From: a virus | Taxonomy: Duplodnaviria > Caudoviricetes | Virus record (IMG/VR): IMGVR_UViG_3300029305_005547 | Span: 128,001-192,000 of that record | DNA length: 64,000 nucleotides | Direction: 5' to 3' (one strand) | In this document: positions 3,249 to 44,920 of the stretch, piece after piece | Layout: every line of letters begins with the position of its first letter | How positions within the stretch are numbered: position 1 is the stretch's first letter | Program-made: the position numbers and the translations under genes | Notes under the pieces: model-generated | Told to the model about the DNA's origin: nothing | Databases searched by the model: none | The model's input: the letters and a program-made list of their open reading frames with translations, nothing else

Positions 3249-3270
3249 TATGATTTTTTGGAGTGTGGGG

Positions 3271-3350
3271 ACGGAATTTAGTTAAGTAAAATTTCTGTAA
3301 GTCTCGATATTTCTCGGGACTTACAGATTCTTTATTTAGCTAAATAGTAA
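3271..3350 (+). repeat. 80-bp tail-fibre cassette element, copy 1 (L box, hairpin spacer, R box)
   Basis: ACGGAATTTAGTTAAGTA-aaattTCTGTAAGTCTCGAtatttcTCGGGACTTACAGAttctttatttag-CTAAATAGTAA; near-identical to four other copies. Confidence 0.97.
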
Positions 3351-3627
3351 GGTGGATAAATCGGGAATTGTTTTTAGAAATTTTAGATCATTTTCAGTTA
3401 AAAGTACAAATCCTATTGCGGTAAACGCTTATGAAATAATCACCCTAGATTTGTCTTCATATAATTATACAAAAAGTCCACATGCATTTATTTCTTCAAC
3501 TTTTTTATGTTCAGTTACTATATCTAATACATCGGCAACTTCAGTAACAGTTACATTATATAATTTATACGGATCATCTCAACAGTGCAGTTGTGTAATA
3601 TATTTATTTGAGTTAAATTCAGTATAA
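3340..3627 (+). other. Silent tail-fibre C-terminal cassette 1 (95 aa, LNSKVDKSG...)
   Basis: Frame opens directly after the in-frame TAG at CTA AAT AGT AAG; no RBS; beta-rich Ser/Thr domain; followed by a terminator at ~3630-3670. Confidence 0.8.
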
Positions 3628-7680: not shown

Positions 7681-7698
7681 ACGGAATTTAGTTAAGTA
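7681..7698 (+). repeat. Isolated L box of the cassette element (left boundary of the expression module)
   Basis: Exact 18-bp match ACGGAATTTAGTTAAGTA, not followed by the hairpin spacer. Confidence 0.92.
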
Positions 7699-7846
7699 TT
7701 CTAAACAAAACCCAAAAAGTTAAGTAACTTAAAAAAAATTATATTTAATCGATAAAATAACAAAAAAAGTAAGGGTAGTTACAGCTACCCTTACTTGAAT
7801 ATTCCAAGATTGGCTTGTATGAGCATTTTGACCTCTTGTTTTCTAG

Positions 7847-8017
7847 TTAGAACAACTGATCAGACAATGCCTGAATCAAAGCCATTCTAACTGAGAAAAT
7901 GTTGGCATATCTGTTTGGATCAGACTGCCAAGCTGTCATGAAACTAGCATCGGTATCAAAACCGTTTGCTAGTTTCATTTCGTTGTATAACTTTCTCAAG
8001 TTATCAATATAACTCAT
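7847..8017 (-). CDS. Small hypothetical protein (56 aa) inside the L-R module
   Basis: AGGAGG RBS before ATG 8017; GATATATTAT early motif at 8051-8060; terminator hairpin at ~7765-7797. Confidence 0.7.
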   Translation of the reverse strand: MSYIDNLRKLYNEMKLANGFDTDASFMTAWQSDPNRYANIFSVRMALIQALSDQLF

Positions 8018-8209
8018 GTTAAAACCTCCTTCCTTAGAATATTCATGATAATAATATATCATCGAAAATATAAGGATTTCAGAGATTTTTTTACACATCT
8101 ACACAGCTTTCTAATATAAAAACATTCTACTAAGTAATTACCATAGAGAAATCTATGGGTCTCAATTATTTTTTCATGAAAGAATAATAGAAAAGGAGGC
8201 GCTCGAGAT

Positions 8210-10090
8210 ATGGCGACTACAAGAAAACATATTGAGATGACCCGCATTGATTCAAGCGGTAATCAGGATATATTATATCCAAAGAATACACTCGCCGATG
8301 TCCACACAAGTTCGACATCCGGCGTTACAATTGAAGGAAAGGTAATGTTCTACGGTACTTGTTCTACAGCCGCTGCAACAGCTGCAAAAGTAGCTTCTGC
8401 AACAGGTTTTGTTCTTAAGGCAGGTGCTCATGTTACCGTTAAATTTACAAATGCTATTACTGTAGCAAGTGCTACATTGAACGTAAATAGTACAGGTGCA
8501 AAGGCAATTCATTACGAAGGTGCAGCTTTAAAGGCTAACGTTATTCGTGCTGGCGCTTCTGTTGAGTTCGTTTACGATGGTACTAATTACCTCGTAGTTG
8601 CAGGTGTAAATCCTGCATATGTTGAAAATAAGAATACCACTAAGTTCTACTTACTTGGTACTCCTAATAATGCAGCAGGAATGCCTTCTGCTGAATATTT
8701 TGATACTGGTGTTTATGTAAGTACAACATCAGGTCAGTTAGTTGCAACATCATTCTCTGGTAATGGTTCTGCATTAACAAACTTAAATGCAAGTAATGTT
8801 AAAAGTGGTACATTAGCAGCTGAAAGACTTGCTACATCTGGCGCAACAGCAGGTTCATATGGATCTTCTGCAGATGCAACTGTAGCAGATTCAGGATCAT
8901 TCACTGTGCCTTATGTAACAGTAGATGCATATGGTCGTGTAACAGCAATTAAAAACGTTACTCTTACATTGACAAGTGATGCTAACTCTGATACAAAAGT
9001 TACAAATACCTTGAATACTACAGCTAAAGCTTATATTACAGGTACTACTTCTGCAACAACAAATACTGGTACTCAGGTATTTGATACTGGTGTTTACCTT
9101 GATACAACTGCAGGAAGACTTACTTCCAGCTCTTTACTTACCGGTACATGTTATTTAGGAAGTTCAACTTCTAACTACATTAACGGTACAAACTATACCG
9201 GAACTGCTGCAAAAGTTGGTACACTTTCTGGTTGGTTGATAGATAGTTGTGCTTCTGCAAGTGCTAACGGAGTAACCAATAAGGCGCTTACAGCAAACCA
9301 GGGCTATTTGTTGCAAAATCAGATTGATACACTAAATAGTAATATGAGTAGTTATTTACCTTTATCAGGTGGAACATTAACTGGTACATTAACAAGTAGA
9401 AATGTAACACCTAGTGCTAATGTATCATATTCATTAGGTTCGACAACAAGAGTATGGACAAATTCATTTGTTAAAACCATGTATATATATGATGGTACAA
9501 ATACATCATCTAATTGCGGAAGTTTTGCAGTTTCTAATGTAGGTACAACATCTGCAGAAGGAATAGCATATCTAATGGTTGGTAATGCTACTTCGTCAGG
9601 AACAGCTGGAAATTCTACTGGTAGATTGCGTCTTTATAATAAGTGGGGCGGTTATGCTGATATTATACCAACAGTTAATAGAAGAGATAATTATACTTTA
9701 AAATTACCTGGAGAAGCTGGAGTATTAGTGAGTGACAACACGATAAAACATGTTGTTGGTAGTACTAAGACTGGAAAAGTTAGTACAAATGAAATAGCTG
9801 GGTTGATTGGTGTTGGTGGAGTTATACTTTCTATGCAAGTATTTGCCCAGATAAATGGAAGTACTACTATTGTAGTATCAACGGAAATACCAAGGAAATC
9901 TGACGTTTCAAGAATAAGAGCAGGATATTTTCAAAATATGGGGGTTTCTGATTCTAATGGTGGAGCTGTATATTGGGATATAGATCAAAGTTTTAATATA
10001 TCTTTAGCATATGCCTATTTGAATGGTACTGAGTATTCAACTACAACAAAATGGTGGATTGAATATACTTATATTGACATTGTCTCATAA
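8210..10090 (+). CDS. Tail fibre / receptor-binding protein (expressed locus: constant aa 1-374, variable tip from L375)
   Basis: Gly/Thr/Ser-rich fibre repeats (FDTGVY twice, YLPLSGGTLTG), AGGAGG RBS, late promoter at 8121-8133. Confidence 0.88.
   Translation: MATTRKHIEMTRIDSSGNQDILYPKNTLADVHTSSTSGVTIEGKVMFYGTCSTAAATAAKVASATGFVLKAGAHVTVKFTNAITVASATLNVNSTGAKAIHYEGAALKANVIRAGASVEFVYDGTNYLVVAGVNPAYVENKNTTKFYLLGTPNNAAGMPSAEYFDTGVYVSTTSGQLVATSFSGNGSALTNLNASNVKSGTLAAERLATSGATAGSYGSSADATVADSGSFTVPYVTVDAYGRVTAIKNVTLTLTSDANSDTKVTNTLNTTAKAYITGTTSATTNTGTQVFDTGVYLDTTAGRLTSSSLLTGTCYLGSSTSNYINGTNYTGTAAKVGTLSGWLIDSCASASANGVTNKALTANQGYLLQNQIDTLNSNMSSYLPLSGGTLTGTLTSRNVTPSANVSYSLGSTTRVWTNSFVKTMYIYDGTNTSSNCGSFAVSNVGTTSAEGIAYLMVGNATSSGTAGNSTGRLRLYNKWGGYADIIPTVNRRDNYTLKLPGEAGVLVSDNTIKHVVGSTKTGKVSTNEIAGLIGVGGVILSMQVFAQINGSTTIVVSTEIPRKSDVSRIRAGYFQNMGVSDSNGGAVYWDIDQSFNISLAYAYLNGTEYSTTTKWWIEYTYIDIVS
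9332..9342 (+). repeat. R box within the tail-fibre gene (CTAAATAGTAA, encoding L-N-S-N)
   Basis: Identical to the 3' end of all five 80-bp elements and in the same reading frame. Confidence 0.88.
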
Positions 10091-10225: not shown

Positions 10226-10399
10226 ATGAGTATTTTTACAAATTCTGAGAAAAACTTTCTTAGTTCTCTCGGTGATGAAATATTTGTAGAGTCTTCAAAG
10301 TCAGAATGTAAAAAAGTTTTTGATACGGCGTATAAAGTATTGGAAGAACTTGGGTTTACTCCAAATATCGGTAAAAAAGAAAAACTAAAAGTACTATAA
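10226..10399 (+). pseudogene. Truncated head-protein-like gene (5' fragment)
   Basis: Late promoter at 10188 and RBS; IFVES motif like the head family; runs into an unrelated fragment at ~10385. Confidence 0.45.
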
Positions 10400-10744
10400 A
10401 TACATCAGGAAATCTTATTACATTTAAAGCTCCATGTAAAAATTATAAATATGCTAAAGTTACTCTAGCATATGGTTATTATGCAAATTACGGTGATTTT
10501 AAAATCACTTATACATTACCCGGAGGAAGTACTGTTTCATTAATCGATAAAGCGTATAGTGATGGTCAAAGTGGTGGTATATTAACAAAAACATTTACCA
10601 TAGACACTTCTACATTAGCCAGTGATGATACAAGTACATTTAAAGGAACTCTATATCTATTAAATAGAAGTAGTAATAGTGTATATTGGGGTTTTAATGG
10701 TTGTATTGGAATATAAAAAAATTGAATTGACTAACACAGCATAA
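10390..10744 (+). pseudogene. 5'-truncated, frameshifted paralogue of 44333-44920
   Basis: Start-less frame ...ITFKAPCKNYKYAKVTLAYGYYANYGD...LYLLNRSSNSVYWGFNGCIGI*, then IELTNTA* in another frame; matches MTFTSNIKNFTYAKV...NYGD...LYNRSSN...NGGIG...VLTNTA*. Confidence 0.75.
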
Positions 10745-14975: not shown

Positions 14976-15055
14976 ACGGAATTTAGTTAAGTAAAATTTC
15001 TGTAAGTCTCGATATTTCTCGGGACTTACAGATTCTTTATTTAGCTAAATAGTAA
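14976..15055 (+). repeat. 80-bp cassette element, copy 2
   Basis: Identical to copy 1. Confidence 0.97.
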
Positions 15056-15413
15056 CGCATCTGTTATTGGAGATATATTTACATCATATGGACAAATGAC
15101 ATGTGTTGGAAGTGAAGGTGGTGGAACTGGAAGTACAAGTACAAATGTAAATGACATACCTAATGGTATTTACTGCGCAATTATCACAGTTGAAGCATGG
15201 GTTGGACAAAATACAAACGTACAAATAAATTCTAATGGCATCAATACCAATAATACATTTATGTATGCATATCAGACAGGAAGAAATACAATTCAGCATG
15301 TATCTATAGTAAATATAACTAACGGCATATTTACAATTTATTTATTTCATAATGATTCTGTAAGTGAGGCACGTGCATTTAATTGGCGCGTTACATTAGT
15401 ACGTATAAAATAA
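15045..15413 (+). other. Silent tail-fibre C-terminal cassette 2 (122 aa, LNSNASVIGD...)
   Basis: Open from CTA 15045 after TAG; the listed ATG at 15096 is internal and in frame; terminator at ~15426-15460. Confidence 0.8.
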
Positions 15414-25707: not shown

Positions 25708-25791
25708 TAATTTATTTTTTATTCACAAAAATATTATATGTTTGAAAATGCTGACTTTACGGTTCATAGAAAAGTAGTTTGAAGTGCTGTT

Positions 25792-25871
25792 ACGGAATTT
25801 AGTTAAGTAAGTTTTCTGTAAGTCTCGATATCTCTCGAGACTTACAGATTCTTTATTTAGCTAAATAGTAA
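25792..25871 (+). repeat. 80-bp cassette element, copy 3
   Basis: Few substitutions versus copy 1; stem TCTGTAAGTCTCGA/TCGAGACTTACAGA is perfect. Confidence 0.97.
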
Positions 25872-26460
25872 GAATTACCCTCCTACATGGACGTTTGGAT
25901 CTAATGGAAATGTTAATGATTTAGCATATACAATGCATACACAATTTAGTTCAGTGAAATCAGGATTTTGTTATTTAGGTGATAGTAATTCTATGTATGT
26001 CGGTATTTCTCGAACATCAGGTGATGTAGGATCTATTTTATTTGCAGATATAGCAAATACCGGAAAAGTATATTTATGGAATAGATCGACTATTCATGAA
26101 AATGGATATATACTAAAAACACTAGCATTTCAAGAATCATTTGATCCTGTTGTAGATAGTTTTACATCGTCATATATTCAAGTTACTGTATCAAAAAGCG
26201 GTAAAATAAAAAATATATTTTTTAATTCTACCCCAAGTGCTGATTTAATAGCAAAAACATCCTATCATCTTACAACCATTACTAATAGTAATTATTTACC
26301 TTCACGTGAATTTAAAAAAGAAATATGTATTTCAACTACATCTGACGGAAAAATATATACAGCTAATTTAACCATTACAACTGGCGGAGCAGTATATCTA
26401 TATCCTCGTCAAACAATTTCAGTCAGTATCCCATTATATGTAAATGAGTTTTTCATTTAA
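25861..26460 (+). other. Silent tail-fibre C-terminal cassette 3 (199 aa, LNSKNYPPTW...)
   Basis: Open from CTA 25861 after TAG; ATG 25933 is internal; C-terminal YLPS...ITTGGAVY resembles fibre-tip domains. Confidence 0.8.
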
Positions 26461-26532: not shown

Positions 26533-27085
26533 TTATTCTAACGGAACTTCTACATCCATAAGTTCACCAATATTAGCAGTAATCTCTTCGTTAGATTTTA
26601 CTTCTCTTCTAATATTAGTTCCCTCTACACAGTTCAAATAGAAATCTTTGGTTCCATCATAACTACCAATGAAATATTGACGTGCTTCAATTTCTTCATC
26701 GATCATTTCATTAAGTTCGTCAATGTTTAAAGCACCAAATTCTTCAAGAAGTTCATCTGCAATTTCCTGACGTCTGTCAATAATGAATTTATCATATTCA
26801 CTACAGAATAAACTCTTTCCATTAGTAAGTTCGAACCACTCCATATCTGTAGTATTAAGTTCTTTAAGATCATCATCACCATCTAAGAACTCAATTGAAA
26901 ATCCTAATGATTTTAGGATAATTTCAAAGAACTCTGCAACACGTGAATCATATGATTTACTTACTGTAATTACAGGTTCATTATCAAGTAAAGCTTTACC
27001 TAAATCTCTTCTTGCTTTAACAGAAGTTCTATATAAAGCATGAATAAGTGCTACTTCTTCCGGCATCATCGCAACGGTGAAATTA
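26533..27085 (-). CDS. Non-virion RNAP beta subunit (C-terminal half), exon 2
   Basis: Joins exon 1 to give RFGEFET-L-NFTVAMMPEE; spliced product 780 aa. Confidence 0.85.
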
Positions 27086-28287
27086 CATGTGTGTTAACTT
27101 TATATCACTATAAAGATCAGACTATATCTTCAACCAATAATCTATTACCAATTATTGGTTGCCTCCCATTTCGGAATTACTTCCTACTCTACTCAGTTAC
27201 TCACTTAAGTCTTTCTCTTAAGTTACCCTTTCGATAGTCGTTGAACGTTCTTATGTTTATAACGATTAATAAAATGACGAATTCGATCAGAATTTATATT
27301 GTATTTAGAATGAATTATATTGATAATATCTTTCGTAGATTTATTATTTCTAATATAACCAAATACTTCATTCTGTACATCAATATCAATATCTGGTAAT
27401 TTCTTATCACTCGATGTGTATTTATCAACATCATAAAACTCATATAGATATTTAAATTTATCGTATCTATGAATGAGAATATTATAGATAGTAGACGTCT
27501 TCACATTAGTAATATCCATGATTTCATATACAGATAATTTGTTTTCTGATAGTAGTTTAAAGACATTTTCTATTTGTTCTTCAGAATATTCTGATTTCGT
27601 TTGTTTACAATTTTCAACATCATAAAATATTGATATATTAATCCATGATAATCGATTTTTAATCATATATAACATAGCACCATCTATACCAGTCATCAAT
27701 TCAATTTCTTTTATTGTAAACATACCACTTTCCATAAGTTCACACGATTCAATCACTTGATCTTTAGAATATTTAGCGAAGTGTGAATTATCGCCATATC
27801 TATATGTGTTCAATCCTGTTTCGAATGCATGAATATTATTTTCTGAATATGTAAGCCATTCTAAGTTATCGACATAGTTATTATGTTTATCTCCGTCTTT
27901 ATGATTAACAACTGGCAATTGATCATCATTTGGAATAAACGCAATTGCAACCAACCTATGAATAGATTTATATACAGATTTTCCATTTTTCAAGTAAATA
28001 CATACTCGAAGGTATCCGTTGTTTGTTGGAAGTGGTTTTAAAATCATATTATTTTTAGTACTATAAATTCGTCCTAGATTAGACACTAGGTATTTTGTTT
28101 CTTCGTCATTAATTATAATAGGTTTCCATATTTCATCAATATCGTTATACATATATCAATCTCCTTTATTTATATATCAAGAGAATAATATATCATCATA
28201 AGTTTCGCTGCTGATTGTCTCTCACGAGAGTTCCCAGCAATTAAAGAGGTTTTCAGTACATATTACTACGCACTGCGCCTAATTTTA
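27086..28287 (-). mobile_element. Group I intron in RNAP beta carrying an HNH homing endonuclease
   Basis: P/Q/R/S elements AATTGCTGGGAA, AATCAGCAGC, GTTCAACGACTA, GAAGATATAGTCT; P1 CGCU/GGCG; terminal G at 27086. Confidence 0.9.
27223..28152 (-). CDS. NUMOD4-HNH homing endonuclease
   Basis: EIWKPI..YLVSNLGRI, HRLVAIAFIPN, VNHKDGDKHNNYVDNLEW; own early motif at 28185-28194. Confidence 0.92.
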   Translation of the reverse strand: MYNDIDEIWKPIIINDEETKYLVSNLGRIYSTKNNMILKPLPTNNGYLRVCIYLKNGKSVYKSIHRLVAIAFIPNDDQLPVVNHKDGDKHNNYVDNLEWLTYSENNIHAFETGLNTYRYGDNSHFAKYSKDQVIESCELMESGMFTIKEIELMTGIDGAMLYMIKNRLSWINISIFYDVENCKQTKSEYSEEQIENVFKLLSENKLSVYEIMDITNVKTSTIYNILIHRYDKFKYLYEFYDVDKYTSSDKKLPDIDIDVQNEVFGYIRNNKSTKDIINIIHSKYNINSDRIRHFINRYKHKNVQRLSKG

Positions 28288-31943: not shown

Positions 31944-33248
31944 TTAATAATTCATTTCTTCTTCAATGACAGTAAGATCATCCTGAGTAAGCATTGACAA
32001 TTTACTTTCAAGAACTGGAACGATATTTCCAAACATAATCTTGTAAAGTTCCTTATCTTTTCTAAACTCCTCATGAACGTTCTTCAATGAGAACTTACGA
32101 TCTTTTTCATTATTGAAATAGAAGCTATTTTTGTTTCCGCCGGTAAGTCCAAGTTCTTTTGCATATGCAATACTAGATCTTACAGGATCAATTCCTCTAA
32201 CCTTATCATACACAAGGCTGACAAATCGACCTGCTTGGTTTCCTCTAGATTTTACAATCATTACACGAATACCAAAACCATCAAATCCATCATCTTCCAT
32301 TTCATATTTCTCTGATCCTACAGCTACAAATTTAAGTAGAATAGATGCATTAAACTGAGGACTTTTTCCTCCAGGAAGAGCTTCATTTTGTGCAAGATAC
32401 AAAATCTCTGATGGTTCATGTACAAATCCAAGCTGTGGTTTGTCTTTAATTTGATTGATAGTAATCAAGATAATATTAGCTCTTCTAAGATAAGGAAGAA
32501 CTTCATTAAAGAATCTTCCGATTTCACCGGTAATTCTCATACGTTCTGTTTGACTACCTACTTCTTCCAAACGAGCCATATCTTTTTTATCATTTTCATT
32601 GAAACCTGTGCTAAGTGTAGCAATGGAATCAATGATAATTACAGTAGGTTCAAAGATTTCAATCTCTTCACCAAACTCATTTAATTTACCTGTTTTATAT
32701 TTATACAGGTCAGGATGATCAACTTTCTGCTTGTAAATACGCATCAATGTAGCTTTAATATCATTAATAGTATTAAGCTCTTGACGAAGTATATACTTAC
32801 CTGCAGCAATATCACTCATAGAGAACTTTGTTAAGTTCTGAATACGAGAATAATTCATTGCCTGTTCAAGGTCAAAGTGAACAATAAAACCATTCTTAAA
32901 AGGTCTTACAATATTAGCAGCTACCTGTGCAGCTGTAGTTGTTTTTGCAGTTGATGGTTTTCCAATAAACGTAACCATAGAACCGCCAGTAATACCGATA
33001 GAAGGATATGAATCTATAACCTGATCATCTTTATCGTATACATTAACACGGTATCCCAAATAATAATCAAGCTGAGGAATACCTGTTTTATAGGTAACAA
33101 CTGACGCATTACCGTCAAAATAATCTTCATCTTTTTTATCTGTGCTTTTTAAAGCTTCAACGATTCCAATAGTCTTACGACCTTCAATATTACTCAAAGC
33201 TTCTTCAACACTAATAAGTTCAGTTTTCTTTGTTGCCATATTTGTCAT
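31944..33248 (-). CDS. RecA/UvsX-like recombinase
   Basis: TGIPQLDYYLG, GKPSTAKTT, IIIDSIA, INQI, PGG, VKSR. Confidence 0.88.
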   Translation of the reverse strand: MTNMATKKTELISVEEALSNIEGRKTIGIVEALKSTDKKDEDYFDGNASVVTYKTGIPQLDYYLGYRVNVYDKDDQVIDSYPSIGITGGSMVTFIGKPSTAKTTTAAQVAANIVRPFKNGFIVHFDLEQAMNYSRIQNLTKFSMSDIAAGKYILRQELNTINDIKATLMRIYKQKVDHPDLYKYKTGKLNEFGEEIEIFEPTVIIIDSIATLSTGFNENDKKDMARLEEVGSQTERMRITGEIGRFFNEVLPYLRRANIILITINQIKDKPQLGFVHEPSEILYLAQNEALPGGKSPQFNASILLKFVAVGSEKYEMEDDGFDGFGIRVMIVKSRGNQAGRFVSLVYDKVRGIDPVRSSIAYAKELGLTGGNKNSFYFNNEKDRKFSLKNVHEEFRKDKELYKIMFGNIVPVLESKLSMLTQDDLTVIEEEMNY

Positions 33249-33324: not shown

Positions 33325-33609
33325 TTACATCTTACCTACTGCAATCCATAATACACCTGGTTCTAAATCACCATCATTTGTATTGTGTACATGAAGTTCA
33401 AATCCAGTTTTATAAATATTTCCTATACAAATATTAAGATTTCCATAATTATAATCTTCTGAATTTGACATAAATGTTGCAAATACTTTAGGTACAACTC
33501 TATATTCTGTATCAAATTCTATATCAAAAGTTGTACGAGTTTTTGATGCAACAACACTATTTATTATTCTACCTGTTTGAATATAATTTATTTCTGCGTT
33601 ACTATTTAG
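33325..33609 (-). other. Silent tail-fibre C-terminal cassette 4 (94 aa; H-type-lectin/gp53-like tip), absent from the ORF track
   Basis: Hand translation: LNSNAEINYIQTGRIINSVVASKTRTTFDIEFDTEYRVVPKVFATFMSNSEDYNYGNLNICIGNIYKTGFELHVHNTNDGDLEPGVLWIAVGKM*. Confidence 0.85.
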
Positions 33610-33678
33610 CTAAATAAGAAATCTGTAAGTCTCGAGAAATATCGAGACTTACAGAAATTTTACTTAACTAAATTCCGT
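33599..33678 (-). repeat. 80-bp cassette element, copy 4 (inverted orientation)
   Basis: Reverse complement of copies 1-3 and 5. Confidence 0.97.
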
Positions 33679-40427: not shown

Positions 40428-41105
40428 GGATTTTACGCGTAAGTAAAACCTCTTTAATTGCGGGAACGAATTCGTTATGTCTTTACTACTAAACTAAGAT
40501 AGTAATATACTTAGTGGCAATGGGTAACTCCAAAGGTATAGTAAAAAGGTAAAGAATAGAATCAATCCGCAGCGAAGATATAATCGTAAAAATAAAAAAA
40601 TAAGATTGCTCTTATTTTTTCCTATGCAAGGGCTGCTCGGGCTTGCACTGTCACCCGTCTGTTTAAGTGCTGTGGAGTGGCTAGTTCCACTTGGCTTTTG
40701 ATTCTACATAGGTTTTGTTTGGAGCAGCCTCATAATCACCACGTCCCAACCAATACTGCCGTATGGTGGTTAGCCTAGACGTTACGCCCCTAGGCCTGCG
40801 ATTCTTGTATACCGGTTCGTGTTGATACAGTGTGTAATCCCTTTTATATTACACTATACAAGATTAGGGTAAATAATAACTCCTTATGAACCGGACTGTT
40901 TTTATTATTTACACTAAAATATTATATGTTTGAAAATTTTAACTTTACGATTATATAACGTTCAACGACTATCGAAAGCATAACTATAGAGAAATACTAT
41001 AGTGAAGAAGCGAGTAGAGTAGGAGAAATCCGAAATAGGAGGCAATATTAATTTGGTAACAGAATTAATATTGAAGATATAGTCTAATATTTTTAACAAA
41101 ATATG
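40428..41105 (+). mobile_element. Group I intron 1 of terL (no endonuclease ORF)
   Basis: P1 UUACGU/GCGUAA; AATTGCGGGAA, AATCCGCAGC, GTTCAACGACTA, GAAGATATAGTCT; ends ...aaatatG; splicing restores FT-C-TPGD. Confidence 0.9.
40590..40915 (-). ncRNA. Candidate antisense ncRNA nested in the intron P6 loop
   Basis: Own promoter-like motif at 40919-40950, GC-rich hairpins, terminator-like hairpin at ~40590-40620, no long ORF. Confidence 0.5.
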
Positions 41106-43629: not shown

Positions 43630-43782
43630 ATGAATAACAATAAAGTAACCAAATTAGACCCTTGGTTAACTGGCTGGATTACCCTTACGTGTAAAAGCGT
43701 AAGGGTATATCTTTTTTGTTATGAGTTGTATTACATAAAGTTGTCGAAAGGTCTATAATTCGATGATAATATGGTAAGGGTG

Positions 43783-43862
43783 ACGGAATTTAGTTAAGTA
43801 AAATTTCTGTAAGTCTCGATATTTCTAGGGACTTACAGATTCTTTATTTAGCTAAATAGTAA
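43783..43862 (+). repeat. 80-bp cassette element, copy 5
   Basis: One substitution versus copy 1 (ctaggg for ctcggg). Confidence 0.97.
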
Positions 43863-44319
43863 TATTACAACTCTAACTACTACTGTAAACGGTAAAGCTA
43901 ATAGTAGTCATACACATAGTTATTTACCATTAAGTGGTGGTACTATTTCCGGTGACATATATCCTTCGATATCTGATGAATATATTTTGGGTGGTACGGG
44001 TTCATATTGGTCTGGAGTAATATCAAGAACATTTTCAGCTATTAATTCAGACACACATACTTATGCTTTTTTAACATCTTATGAGACAGGAACGACTAGT
44101 AGAGTTGGTACCGGGCGTTTAGATTTAGGTAATGGAACTGCATCGGGTACAGCTGGTAATGGACGTGGTTTAATTCGTATGTATGGTACATCTTCCGGAT
44201 ATACACAAATTCAAACTGGTAATAATACAACGTCTAATATTACTCTAACCCTTCCTAGTAAAACTGGTACTATTCCCACAGTATCTTTATCTGGTACAGT
44301 ATTAACTATTACCACTTAG
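43852..44319 (+). other. Silent tail-fibre C-terminal cassette 5 (155 aa, LNSNITTLTTTVNGKANSSHTHSYLPLSGGT...)
   Basis: Open from CTA 43852 after TAG; homologous to the expressed tip (YLPLSGGT; GTTS..G...L..GN...SGTAGN..G..R.Y). Confidence 0.88.
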
Positions 44320-44332
44320 GGAGGTGTAGAAT

Positions 44333-44920
44333 ATGTCTATAGTTATGAATGGAACTACTATACCTACTACAGAAGGTAGTATTAAAGTAAATGGTACTAA
44401 TATAACTAAAGTTGTATGTAATGGTACTACTATATGGGAGGTACCACAAACTTTAACAGCATTTACTGCGTCATTTGAACAAACATACAATTGTTATTTT
44501 AGTAGAACTGCCGTTTCTATAAATAATACAACTTATATTGCATCAAATGATACAAATAACGGTGAAACAGCACGTAATTCTGGAGGATCATATTCAGCAA
44601 CAAAAGACATTATGACTTTTACAAGTAATATTAAAAATTTCACATATGCTAAAGTTAAATTATGGGCTTGTATTTATTCAAACTATGGAGATGCAACACT
44701 TGAATATAGTACTAATGGTGGATCGACGTGGACAACATTGGTAACATTCACATATGCTTCTAAAGCCGGTACTATTTACCAACCAGAATTAACATTGGCA
44801 ACGTCAAATTTATCATCTATTAAAGCCAGAGTAAATTTATATAATAGATCTTCAAATCAATATTATTTTGTAAATGGTGGTATAGGTGTTCAATCAGTTG
44901 TTTTAACAAATACGGCTTAA
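44333..44920 (+). CDS. Tail-fibre companion / receptor-binding subunit
   Basis: GGAGG RBS; N-terminal IKVNGTNITKVVCNGTTIW motif, beta-rich body; directly follows cassette 5. Confidence 0.65.
   Translation: MSIVMNGTTIPTTEGSIKVNGTNITKVVCNGTTIWEVPQTLTAFTASFEQTYNCYFSRTAVSINNTTYIASNDTNNGETARNSGGSYSATKDIMTFTSNIKNFTYAKVKLWACIYSNYGDATLEYSTNGGSTWTTLVTFTYASKAGTIYQPELTLATSNLSSIKARVNLYNRSSNQYYFVNGGIGVQSVVLTNTA

Follow-up and report, generated by a model that had tools for sequence, protein, structure and literature searches.

A mobile 5' half-gene as the probable switch among dispersed silent tail-fibre tips in a large phage genome

How can a phage genome with one complete gene for a tail-fibre or receptor-binding protein make use of the many start-less fibre tips scattered around it, and is it the tips that move or the 5' half of the gene? 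The question is raised by a locus at positions 7681-10090 of a 64,000-nucleotide stretch of DNA (the window), which comprises bases 128001-192000 of the IMG/VR virus record IMGVR_UViG_3300029305_005547 (Duplodnaviria; Caudoviricetes), a 278,849-bp gut phage genome rated complete and with a G+C content of 32%. Positions are those of the window unless given as genome positions. An initial annotation of the window had proposed that the 5' half-gene moves and the tips stay. We consider it likely that the 1633-nt segment between two short boxes, L and R, is a mobile expression module that is exchanged with spacers by reciprocal crossover at both boxes. Exchange products with exact boundaries, together with products of a single crossover at L, are present in genomes from nature that are nearly identical to this one, and the same architecture is found in three lineages.

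The left box, L (ACGGAATTTAGTTAAGTA), is 18 nt long and is present in six exact copies in the window, against 0.14 expected. Five of these begin an 80-nt element made up of L, a 51-nt spacer and the 11-nt right box, R (CTAAATAGTAA), which is exact at the end of all five; the sixth, an exact match to the 18-mer of the silent elements, stands alone at 7681-7698 (plus strand), and there R follows 1633 nt after L, at 9332-9342 (plus strand), where it begins codon 375 of the fibre open reading frame (ORF) at 8210-10090, the window's only full fibre ORF. Exact box scans agree with the silent loci and the split locus as the initial annotation had drawn them. As a bare 11-mer R is not significant, with about 0.9 chance copies expected genome-wide; what counts is its frame and position. 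A TAG stop stands directly before every silent R, and in all five silent copies in the window the frame CTA AAT AGT AAx, which lacks a start codon, is open for 94-199 codons. A stray R at genome 102735 was considered as a second expression site and rejected, since the frames there are closed; recoding of TAG or read-through of the element was likewise set aside, since three stops interrupt the R frame within the element.

Genome-wide, 18 elements lie between 19 and 172 kb, in addition to the one split copy. Thirteen of the 18 slots are direct repeats relative to the slot of the module (five are on the minus strand), and 16 elements combine an exact R with an in-frame (LNSN/K), start-less fibre tip that is open for 94-457 codons. 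Two slots outside the window are decayed: the one at genome 41518 (minus strand) retains L and the hairpin and has neither R nor tip, and at genome 96095 an additional T in R disrupts the frame of the slot, whose upstream ORF terminates in the TAG of L. No conserved box was found 3' of the tips. The elements have invariant arms and a variable centre, and are predicted to fold back in single-stranded form (-16 to -18 kcal/mol; z is about -6.5 here and -2.4 to -3.6 in the sister lineage), with L pairing with the bases just before and into R. The 14-bp palindrome TATTTAG/CTAAATA at R and the likeness between L and R, both put forward in the initial annotation, are real, but they are a consequence of this fold-back and are not conserved in the sister lineage. 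Two further features were seen at L. It reads TAG-t-TAA-g-TA, which together with the next base, A in silent slots, gives stops in all three frames (7688-7698, and at every L). The 12 nt before every L (for example 3259-3270 and 43771-43782) are G-rich and nearly C-free; G makes up 46% of them in this genome and 55% in its sister, versus 14-16% genome-wide, and this tract may be part of the site.

The module itself (7699-9331, plus strand) holds most of what had been ascribed to it at the outset: a terminator-like hairpin (7767-7796, minus strand; a 12-bp stem followed by a T run) that belongs to a small divergent gene, this gene itself (P0123; 7847-8017, minus strand; 56 aa), a GGAGG ribosome-binding site at 8195-8199 and fibre codons 1-374 (8210-9331, plus strand), the constant part, which ends ...QNQIDT and is common to relatives at 66-95% identity. 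A second GTTAAGTAA lies inside the module at 7719-7727. R encodes L-N-S-N and leads into the currently expressed tip, LNSNMSSYLPL... (9332-10090, plus strand), which in 4 contigs from 4 samples is a separate 248-aa ORF behind a spacer. The N-terminal module is present in a single copy in the genome, as is this home tip. Family searches with the 56-aa gene, which was also called in L009 and L010, contigs of related strains, gave no match; sister-lineage modules lack such a gene, and it is therefore probably cargo. The leader (about 8100-8209 here; L011 9900-10000; also L047 and L049) is conserved in all lineages and consists of AAAACAnTCT..., a hairpin and TTTTTCATGAAA, followed by the ribosome-binding site; it is probably the fibre promoter or a regulatory leader. 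Sequence searches of Pfam, PHROGs and PDB did not recognise the fibre, and the label is based on relatives with Phage_fiber_2, Peptidase_S74, BppU_N or H_lectin domains, on HxH and YLPLSGGT motifs, and on the sister phage, where the gene adjoins a tail-tube-like gene.

Variants of the same strain were located by exact look-ups of three window proteins: the 56-aa gene product, the product of the WDGH gene before the module, and the home tip from its first ATG. Most contigs found in this way carry the reference arrangement, and the variants (L069-L071, L074-L077) have a background 99.9-100% identical to this genome. In L074, a 6-kb contig, genome 131960-135698 (to the end of L) is followed by a 51-nt spacer and then by genome 137332-139535 (from R), at 99.97 and 100% identity. 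Identity ends at 7698 and resumes exactly at 9332, the left and right exchange boundaries, the module having been replaced exactly by the spacer with the WDGH gene upstream and the NMSSYLPL tip left in place. The initial annotation had predicted this L-spacer-R arrangement at the 7681 locus as the outcome of a double crossover that swaps module and spacer, and the product is exact at both boxes with gene order unchanged. An 81.9-kb contig (sample ERZ27248370) and a 9.8-kb contig have the same gene order. For the genome behind the 81.9-kb contig, the spacer variant at the emptied home slot leads one to expect the module at genome slot 99802 or 19309; of two further slots that fit this variant, 127202 is excluded and 125886 probably so, and 131271 and 142976 are excluded as well. 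L075 and L076 share the left junction of L074 with two different spacer variants, and L077 has the right junction; since the spacers of L075 and L076 differ, there were at least two separate emptying events.

The module was also found at other loci, which bears out the initial proposal that it is the 5' half-gene that moves. In L070 the flank of the silent slot at 3271-3627 (plus strand; element 3271-3350 and a start-less 95-codon tip from 3340) is joined to L and the module, and L077, from the same sample, reads spacer, R, home tip. The tip of this slot was searched for among longer proteins as part of a fused fibre, and none was found. In L069 and L071 the flank of the silent slot at 25792-26460 (plus strand; element 25792-25871 and a 199-codon tip), present over 542 and 115 nt respectively, is joined to L and the module. 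Both read on from the module through R into the home tip, of which L069 retains 444 nt, and are thus products of a crossover at L only. In L075, from the same sample as L069, the home slot holds the spacer variant of the silent slot at 14976-15413 (plus strand; element 14976-15055 and a 122-codon tip). Together, L069 and L075 would fit an excision of module, R, tip and everything up to the next L by L x L crossover, with re-insertion at the L of the 25792 slot, which would also be the first half of a two-step route to a full swap. Two allele types occur in each of the samples ERZ27248446, 3300022654 and 3300019378, and in ERZ27248446 they are the two alleles of the home slot.

These arrangements have to be set against the view that the module is fixed and the tips move, being replaced or gene-converted into the expression site as in pilE/pilS and vlsE. 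One contig has the pattern expected of moving tips, a fixed module with a changed tip: L010 keeps the WDGH gene, L, module and R, carries another tip, and rejoins the genome at 10381; the module is also close to the tail genes in most strains. At 10381-10740 (plus strand) there is a remnant of a tip-companion gene of 200 aa; it covers the C-terminal half, is 92% identical to the intact gene of L010 (L010 2140-2742) and has a frameshift near its end. The remnant is the scar of a tip replacement that took place at the home slot in the past. With another tip in the same slot in L010, tips therefore turn over too. This pattern was seen once, and in the variants the module lies behind the flanks of other slots. 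The home slot can be emptied with its tip left behind a spacer, no conserved sequence 3' of the tips is there to end a conversion tract, and this genome has no second copy of the home tip. The emptied home slot and the absence of a 3' box argue against conversion into a fixed site, and we regard moving tips as a very improbable explanation of the variants.

Relatives extend the picture beyond this strain. Proteins with the 374-residue head at 95, 74 and 66% identity have wholly different tails directly after LNS(N/K) or LNCN. The 66% lineage includes a complete genome of 275,512 bp (G001) with the same architecture and different boxes, L' (GGAACCAATTTTGTTAAGT) and R' (AAACTGCAAC); it has one split element with the module, and 35 of its 35 silent cassettes are open, over 89-275 codons, the chance of a frame open for 89 codons being about 0.001 per frame. 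The 74% lineage (L049, L064) again has this architecture, with the first base of the expressed R differing from that of the silent R. Between L049 and L064 the tips are different, and so is the sequence immediately ahead of L (only 10 nt of the L064 flank are present). As to the putative 7-nt crossover cores put forward in the initial annotation, GTTAAGT of L is conserved across lineages, but the sequence of R shifts with its codons (LNSN to LNCN). L and its G-rich flank stand before the module in all three lineages, so that the L match at 7681, whose conservation upstream of the module the initial annotation had made a point of, is not due to chance.

In these relatives, too, the module is found at other slots. 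In L009 (94% identical) it lies behind the flank of the slot at genome 96095, and the sequence downstream of it is that of the 100-kb region, which is about 36 kb away from the home slot. L016 agrees with G001 and L011 in its upstream flank and in its tip (HQIYY...); the module is before the tip and the spacer behind it in L016 and the reverse holds in G001, which puts the module of L016 at a neighbouring slot. The modules of L016 and L017 are 99.2% identical and their tips are different. Translational bypass or RNA-level joining was rejected, since fused genes are present as DNA in other strains. Behind the swapped tip, L016 (1676-7187, compared with G001 119148-124625, minus strand) runs into a slot that is 61 kb away and inverted in G001, to be explained by a large inversion at L or else by a mis-join within the repeat. 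The 65% lineage (L047/L048) and distant fibre relatives (47-80% local identity) have no such elements and were ruled out as carriers of the system. In L048 (9266-10414) the same head, without L, spacer or R, has an RVT_1 reverse-transcriptase gene 2 kb downstream, and a diversity-generating retroelement may do the job of the cassettes there. A scan of IMG/VR for the L box gave one match, a chance one inside an unrelated gene; IMG/VR scans for the junctions of the module with L and with R were empty, probably because records nearly identical to this one were not in the set scanned; and metagenome scans by DNA pattern and by protein alignment gave no matches.

Could the variant junctions be chimeras that an assembler or a library created at repeats? 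Every variant is a contig, the 80-nt elements exceed small k-mers, and the join of L016 to the slot 61 kb away, falling inside a repeat, could be such a mis-join. Against this, L and R, at 18 and 11 nt, are much shorter than the k of 141 implied for two of the contigs by their k141_ names, the same junctions appear in separate JGI, ENA and Logan assemblies, the emptied slot is on an 81.9-kb contig, and the boundaries are exact and reciprocal. Artefact strikes us as an extremely improbable source of the junctions.

Exchange of module and spacer would proceed as follows. The module would supply the putative promoter or leader and the virion-proximal 374 codons of the tail-fibre or receptor-binding protein, and each of 17 or so slots would be made up, in this order, of L, a fold-back spacer of 51 nt, R and a tip that lacks a start codon and is shut off on its upstream side by a stop. 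One slot would hold the module instead of a spacer, and only its tip would be made. A crossover in L and another in R would swap module and spacer between two slots, thereby silencing the old tip and turning on the new one, with gene order kept and one module per genome. The likely route has two steps that would follow in a set order: L x L crossover would excise a circle, or invert the segment if the slots are inverted, and R x R crossover would then re-insert or re-invert it. The prevalence of direct slots (13 of 18) argues against a plain inversion shufflon or simple inversion and deletion. The whole would amount to a programmed, recombinase-driven switch of host range.

Such a switch appears to be a dedicated site-specific system, because the element arms are invariant while the centre varies, and because 11 nt is too short for efficient homologous recombination; the homology common to the slots is 18 and 11 nt only. 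The candidate catalyst, acting on the fold-back sites, would be the phage's single conserved Xer-like tyrosine recombinase (genome 64172-65197), the only classical recombinase found. It scores 231 bits against NF040815 (cut-off 220), the residues R, K, H-x-x-R, H and Y are visible in its sequence, and it is 73% identical between this genome and G001. Searches for a serine recombinase, Y1 transposase, TnpB and reverse transcriptase found none, and mobility driven by Y1, TnpB or reverse transcriptase was rejected since those genes are absent. That the locus represents a natural form of recombinase-mediated cassette exchange (RMCE), in which the Xer-like enzyme, acting at two different short sites that a fold-back element presents, would move one promoter-bearing head among 17-35 dispersed silent tips, is a tentative proposal to which we assign slightly less than an even chance.

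Several observations weigh against exchange of the module by such a system. The variant evidence comes entirely from assembled contigs. Logan contigs of four public runs at about 5-10x depth have no clean joints at L or R; the joints and loose ends listed in those four runs belong to other organisms. The one hint of variation is that contigs of two runs end 12 nt past L, as they would at an assembly-graph branch. A completed swap on one contig, with the flank of one slot followed by L, module, R and the tip of that same slot, was found only in the 94-96% relatives L009 and L016. In most strains and in both complete genomes the module is at or next to its home near the tail genes, and hopping is therefore not frequent or neutral enough to randomise positions. 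The recombinase gene lies 71 kb from the module, and its product could have a different role, for instance in lysogeny or in resolving dimers or concatemers. The right end of L010 is illegitimate. The spacer variants are mosaic, failing the four-gamete test with all four combinations of variant sites occurring, and orthologous slots with identical tips have spacers that differ at 8-10 of 54 positions, so that ordinary homologous recombination also acts on the repeats.

The mosaic and divergent spacers lead to the question of whether general or short-homology recombination, with occasional crossovers made by the phage's own recombination and replication machinery in the 80-nt repeats and in L and R, for example by join-copy at breaks in the palindromic spacers, could have made the exchange products as by-products that host-range selection then sorted, without a dedicated system. 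L069 resembles a one-sided join, L010 and the remnant at 10381-10740 together would be an illegitimate right-hand join, and the window has a RecA/KaiC-like ATPase gene (31944-33248). A precise double crossover by this route needs the 11-nt right box, yet emptied home slots with two spacer types, and modules behind two other flanks, occur at 99.9-100% identity. Invariant arms around a variable centre are the pattern of a protein-binding site and not of homology length, repeats of 80-100 nt, dispersed by the dozen, would burden a genome that had no use for them, and 35 of 35 silent tips of G001 are kept open. We therefore think it unlikely that general recombination accounts for the products by itself.

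How does module exchange compare with known switches? A literature search did not find a description of a system with dispersed cassettes and a moving head. The R64 (Rci) and p15B Min shufflons can be grouped with the Rin shufflon of Bifidobacterium prophages; Rci, like Rin, is an arm-less XerD-like enzyme. Rin has 11-bp sites and a XerD-like tyrosine recombinase (PMC6109161). As in these three shufflons, one constant N-terminal receptor-binding part is found here with several promoter-less C-terminal cassettes; as in Rin, an 11-bp repeat stands at every junction (the 11-nt R is exact in 16 silent cassettes and the expressed gene); and as with Rin and Rci, the recombinase is of Xer type, here in the form of an Xer-like candidate only. 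Shufflon cassettes, however, are clustered beside the recombinase as inverted pairs and are inverted at one site type, whereas here they extend over about 150 kb among housekeeping genes, mostly as direct repeats, with the recombinase 71 kb off, a second box, L, and a fold-back spacer, and the variants are exchanges of module and spacer with gene order intact, not inversions.

The vsa locus of Mycoplasma pulmonis switches its expression site in a similar way to the Vpma locus of M. agalactiae. In the latter, a promoter-bearing 5' part is switched by inversions that the Xer-like recombinase Xer1 carries out (PMC2268961). As at both loci, one 5' part with its promoter would be brought to silent genes of which one is expressed at a time, and, as with Vpma, an Xer-like tyrosine recombinase is present, with its catalytic residues intact. 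The mycoplasma systems rely on inversions at one site type in a compact locus beside the recombinase gene, whereas here there are two boxes, dispersed slots and a phage genome, and the moving part encodes 374 codons.

In Mu (Gin) and P1 (Cin), a phage likewise switches the C-terminal receptor-binding part of a fibre at a junction of constant and variable parts, but with two alternatives, a serine invertase and one flipped segment, and no serine recombinase was found here. Integrons share promoter-less cassettes, each marked by an imperfect palindrome, which here is predicted to fold back, and a recombinase of the Xer-related branch; in integrons the promoter is fixed and it is the cassettes that move to it, forming a tandem array, whereas here promoter and head move to fixed cassettes, and the recombinase of this phage scores 83 bits against the integron-integrase family TIGR02249 (cut-off 265), its best family being NF040815. 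Dispersed, silent, promoter-less cassettes with one expression site are also found in pilE/pilS and vlsE; unlike there, the home slot here is emptied with its tip in place, and there is no 3' homology box.

In engineered RMCE with Flp or Cre and heterospecific sites, a double crossover swaps contents and leaves the surroundings unchanged. Two non-identical sites likewise flank the exchanged segment here; heterospecificity of the sites and a site-specific enzyme, which are part of the laboratory design, are putative features of this system. The PeSL mobile regulatory cassettes of T4-type phages are promoter-terminator stem-loop motifs on either side of complete small genes, and homologous recombination shuffles them over evolutionary time (PMC2839356, PMC4122927). 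Dispersed, conserved stem-loops serve as recombination points in a large virulent phage genome there as they would here, but here one gene is assembled from a head and alternative tails. One promoter-bearing head with many headless tails is already known from shufflons, mycoplasmas and gene conversion; what is new are dispersed cassettes in a virus genome, a two-box, head-moving exchange that keeps gene order, and a scale of 17-35 tips. We know of no described phage switch with such a repertoire, Gin-type switches having two tips and clustered shufflons about four to seven.

If exchange is programmed, one virulent-looking jumbo phage carries 17-35 host-recognition tips that it can try singly with the genome undisturbed. 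It would then be a natural analogue of engineered cassette exchange and may supply a compact recombinase together with its sites. Scattered fibre genes and short 'hypothetical' ORFs in phage genomes may be parts of one system, and these elements are where assemblies of such phages will be broken or will vary. The proposal is testable, as it predicts a small number of junctions whose sequences are known exactly.

Two more silent slots lie in the window. One is inverted (33325-33678, minus strand), with its element at 33599-33678 and a 94-codon tip, and the RecA/KaiC-like ATPase gene, also on the minus strand, is directly downstream of this tip. The other (43783-44319, plus strand; element 43783-43862) has a 155-codon tip with the SYLPLSGGT motif, as in the expressed tip, and a tip 74% similar to it is the expressed one in strain L009/P0002. 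Some tips are directly followed by members of a family of genes for 195-200 aa (start MSIVMNGTTIP..., end ...LTNTA), which may be a tip companion or chaperone; its members, at 44333-44920 in the window, L009 2190-2783 and L010 2140-2742, had no family match. Elsewhere in the window, 130-nt repeats are present at 40956 and 43035, with inverted partners at 27077-27249, and a 54-nt promoter-like repeat (...AAAATATTATATGTTTGAAAAT...) recurs at 25711, 31890, 39102, 39510 and 40899.

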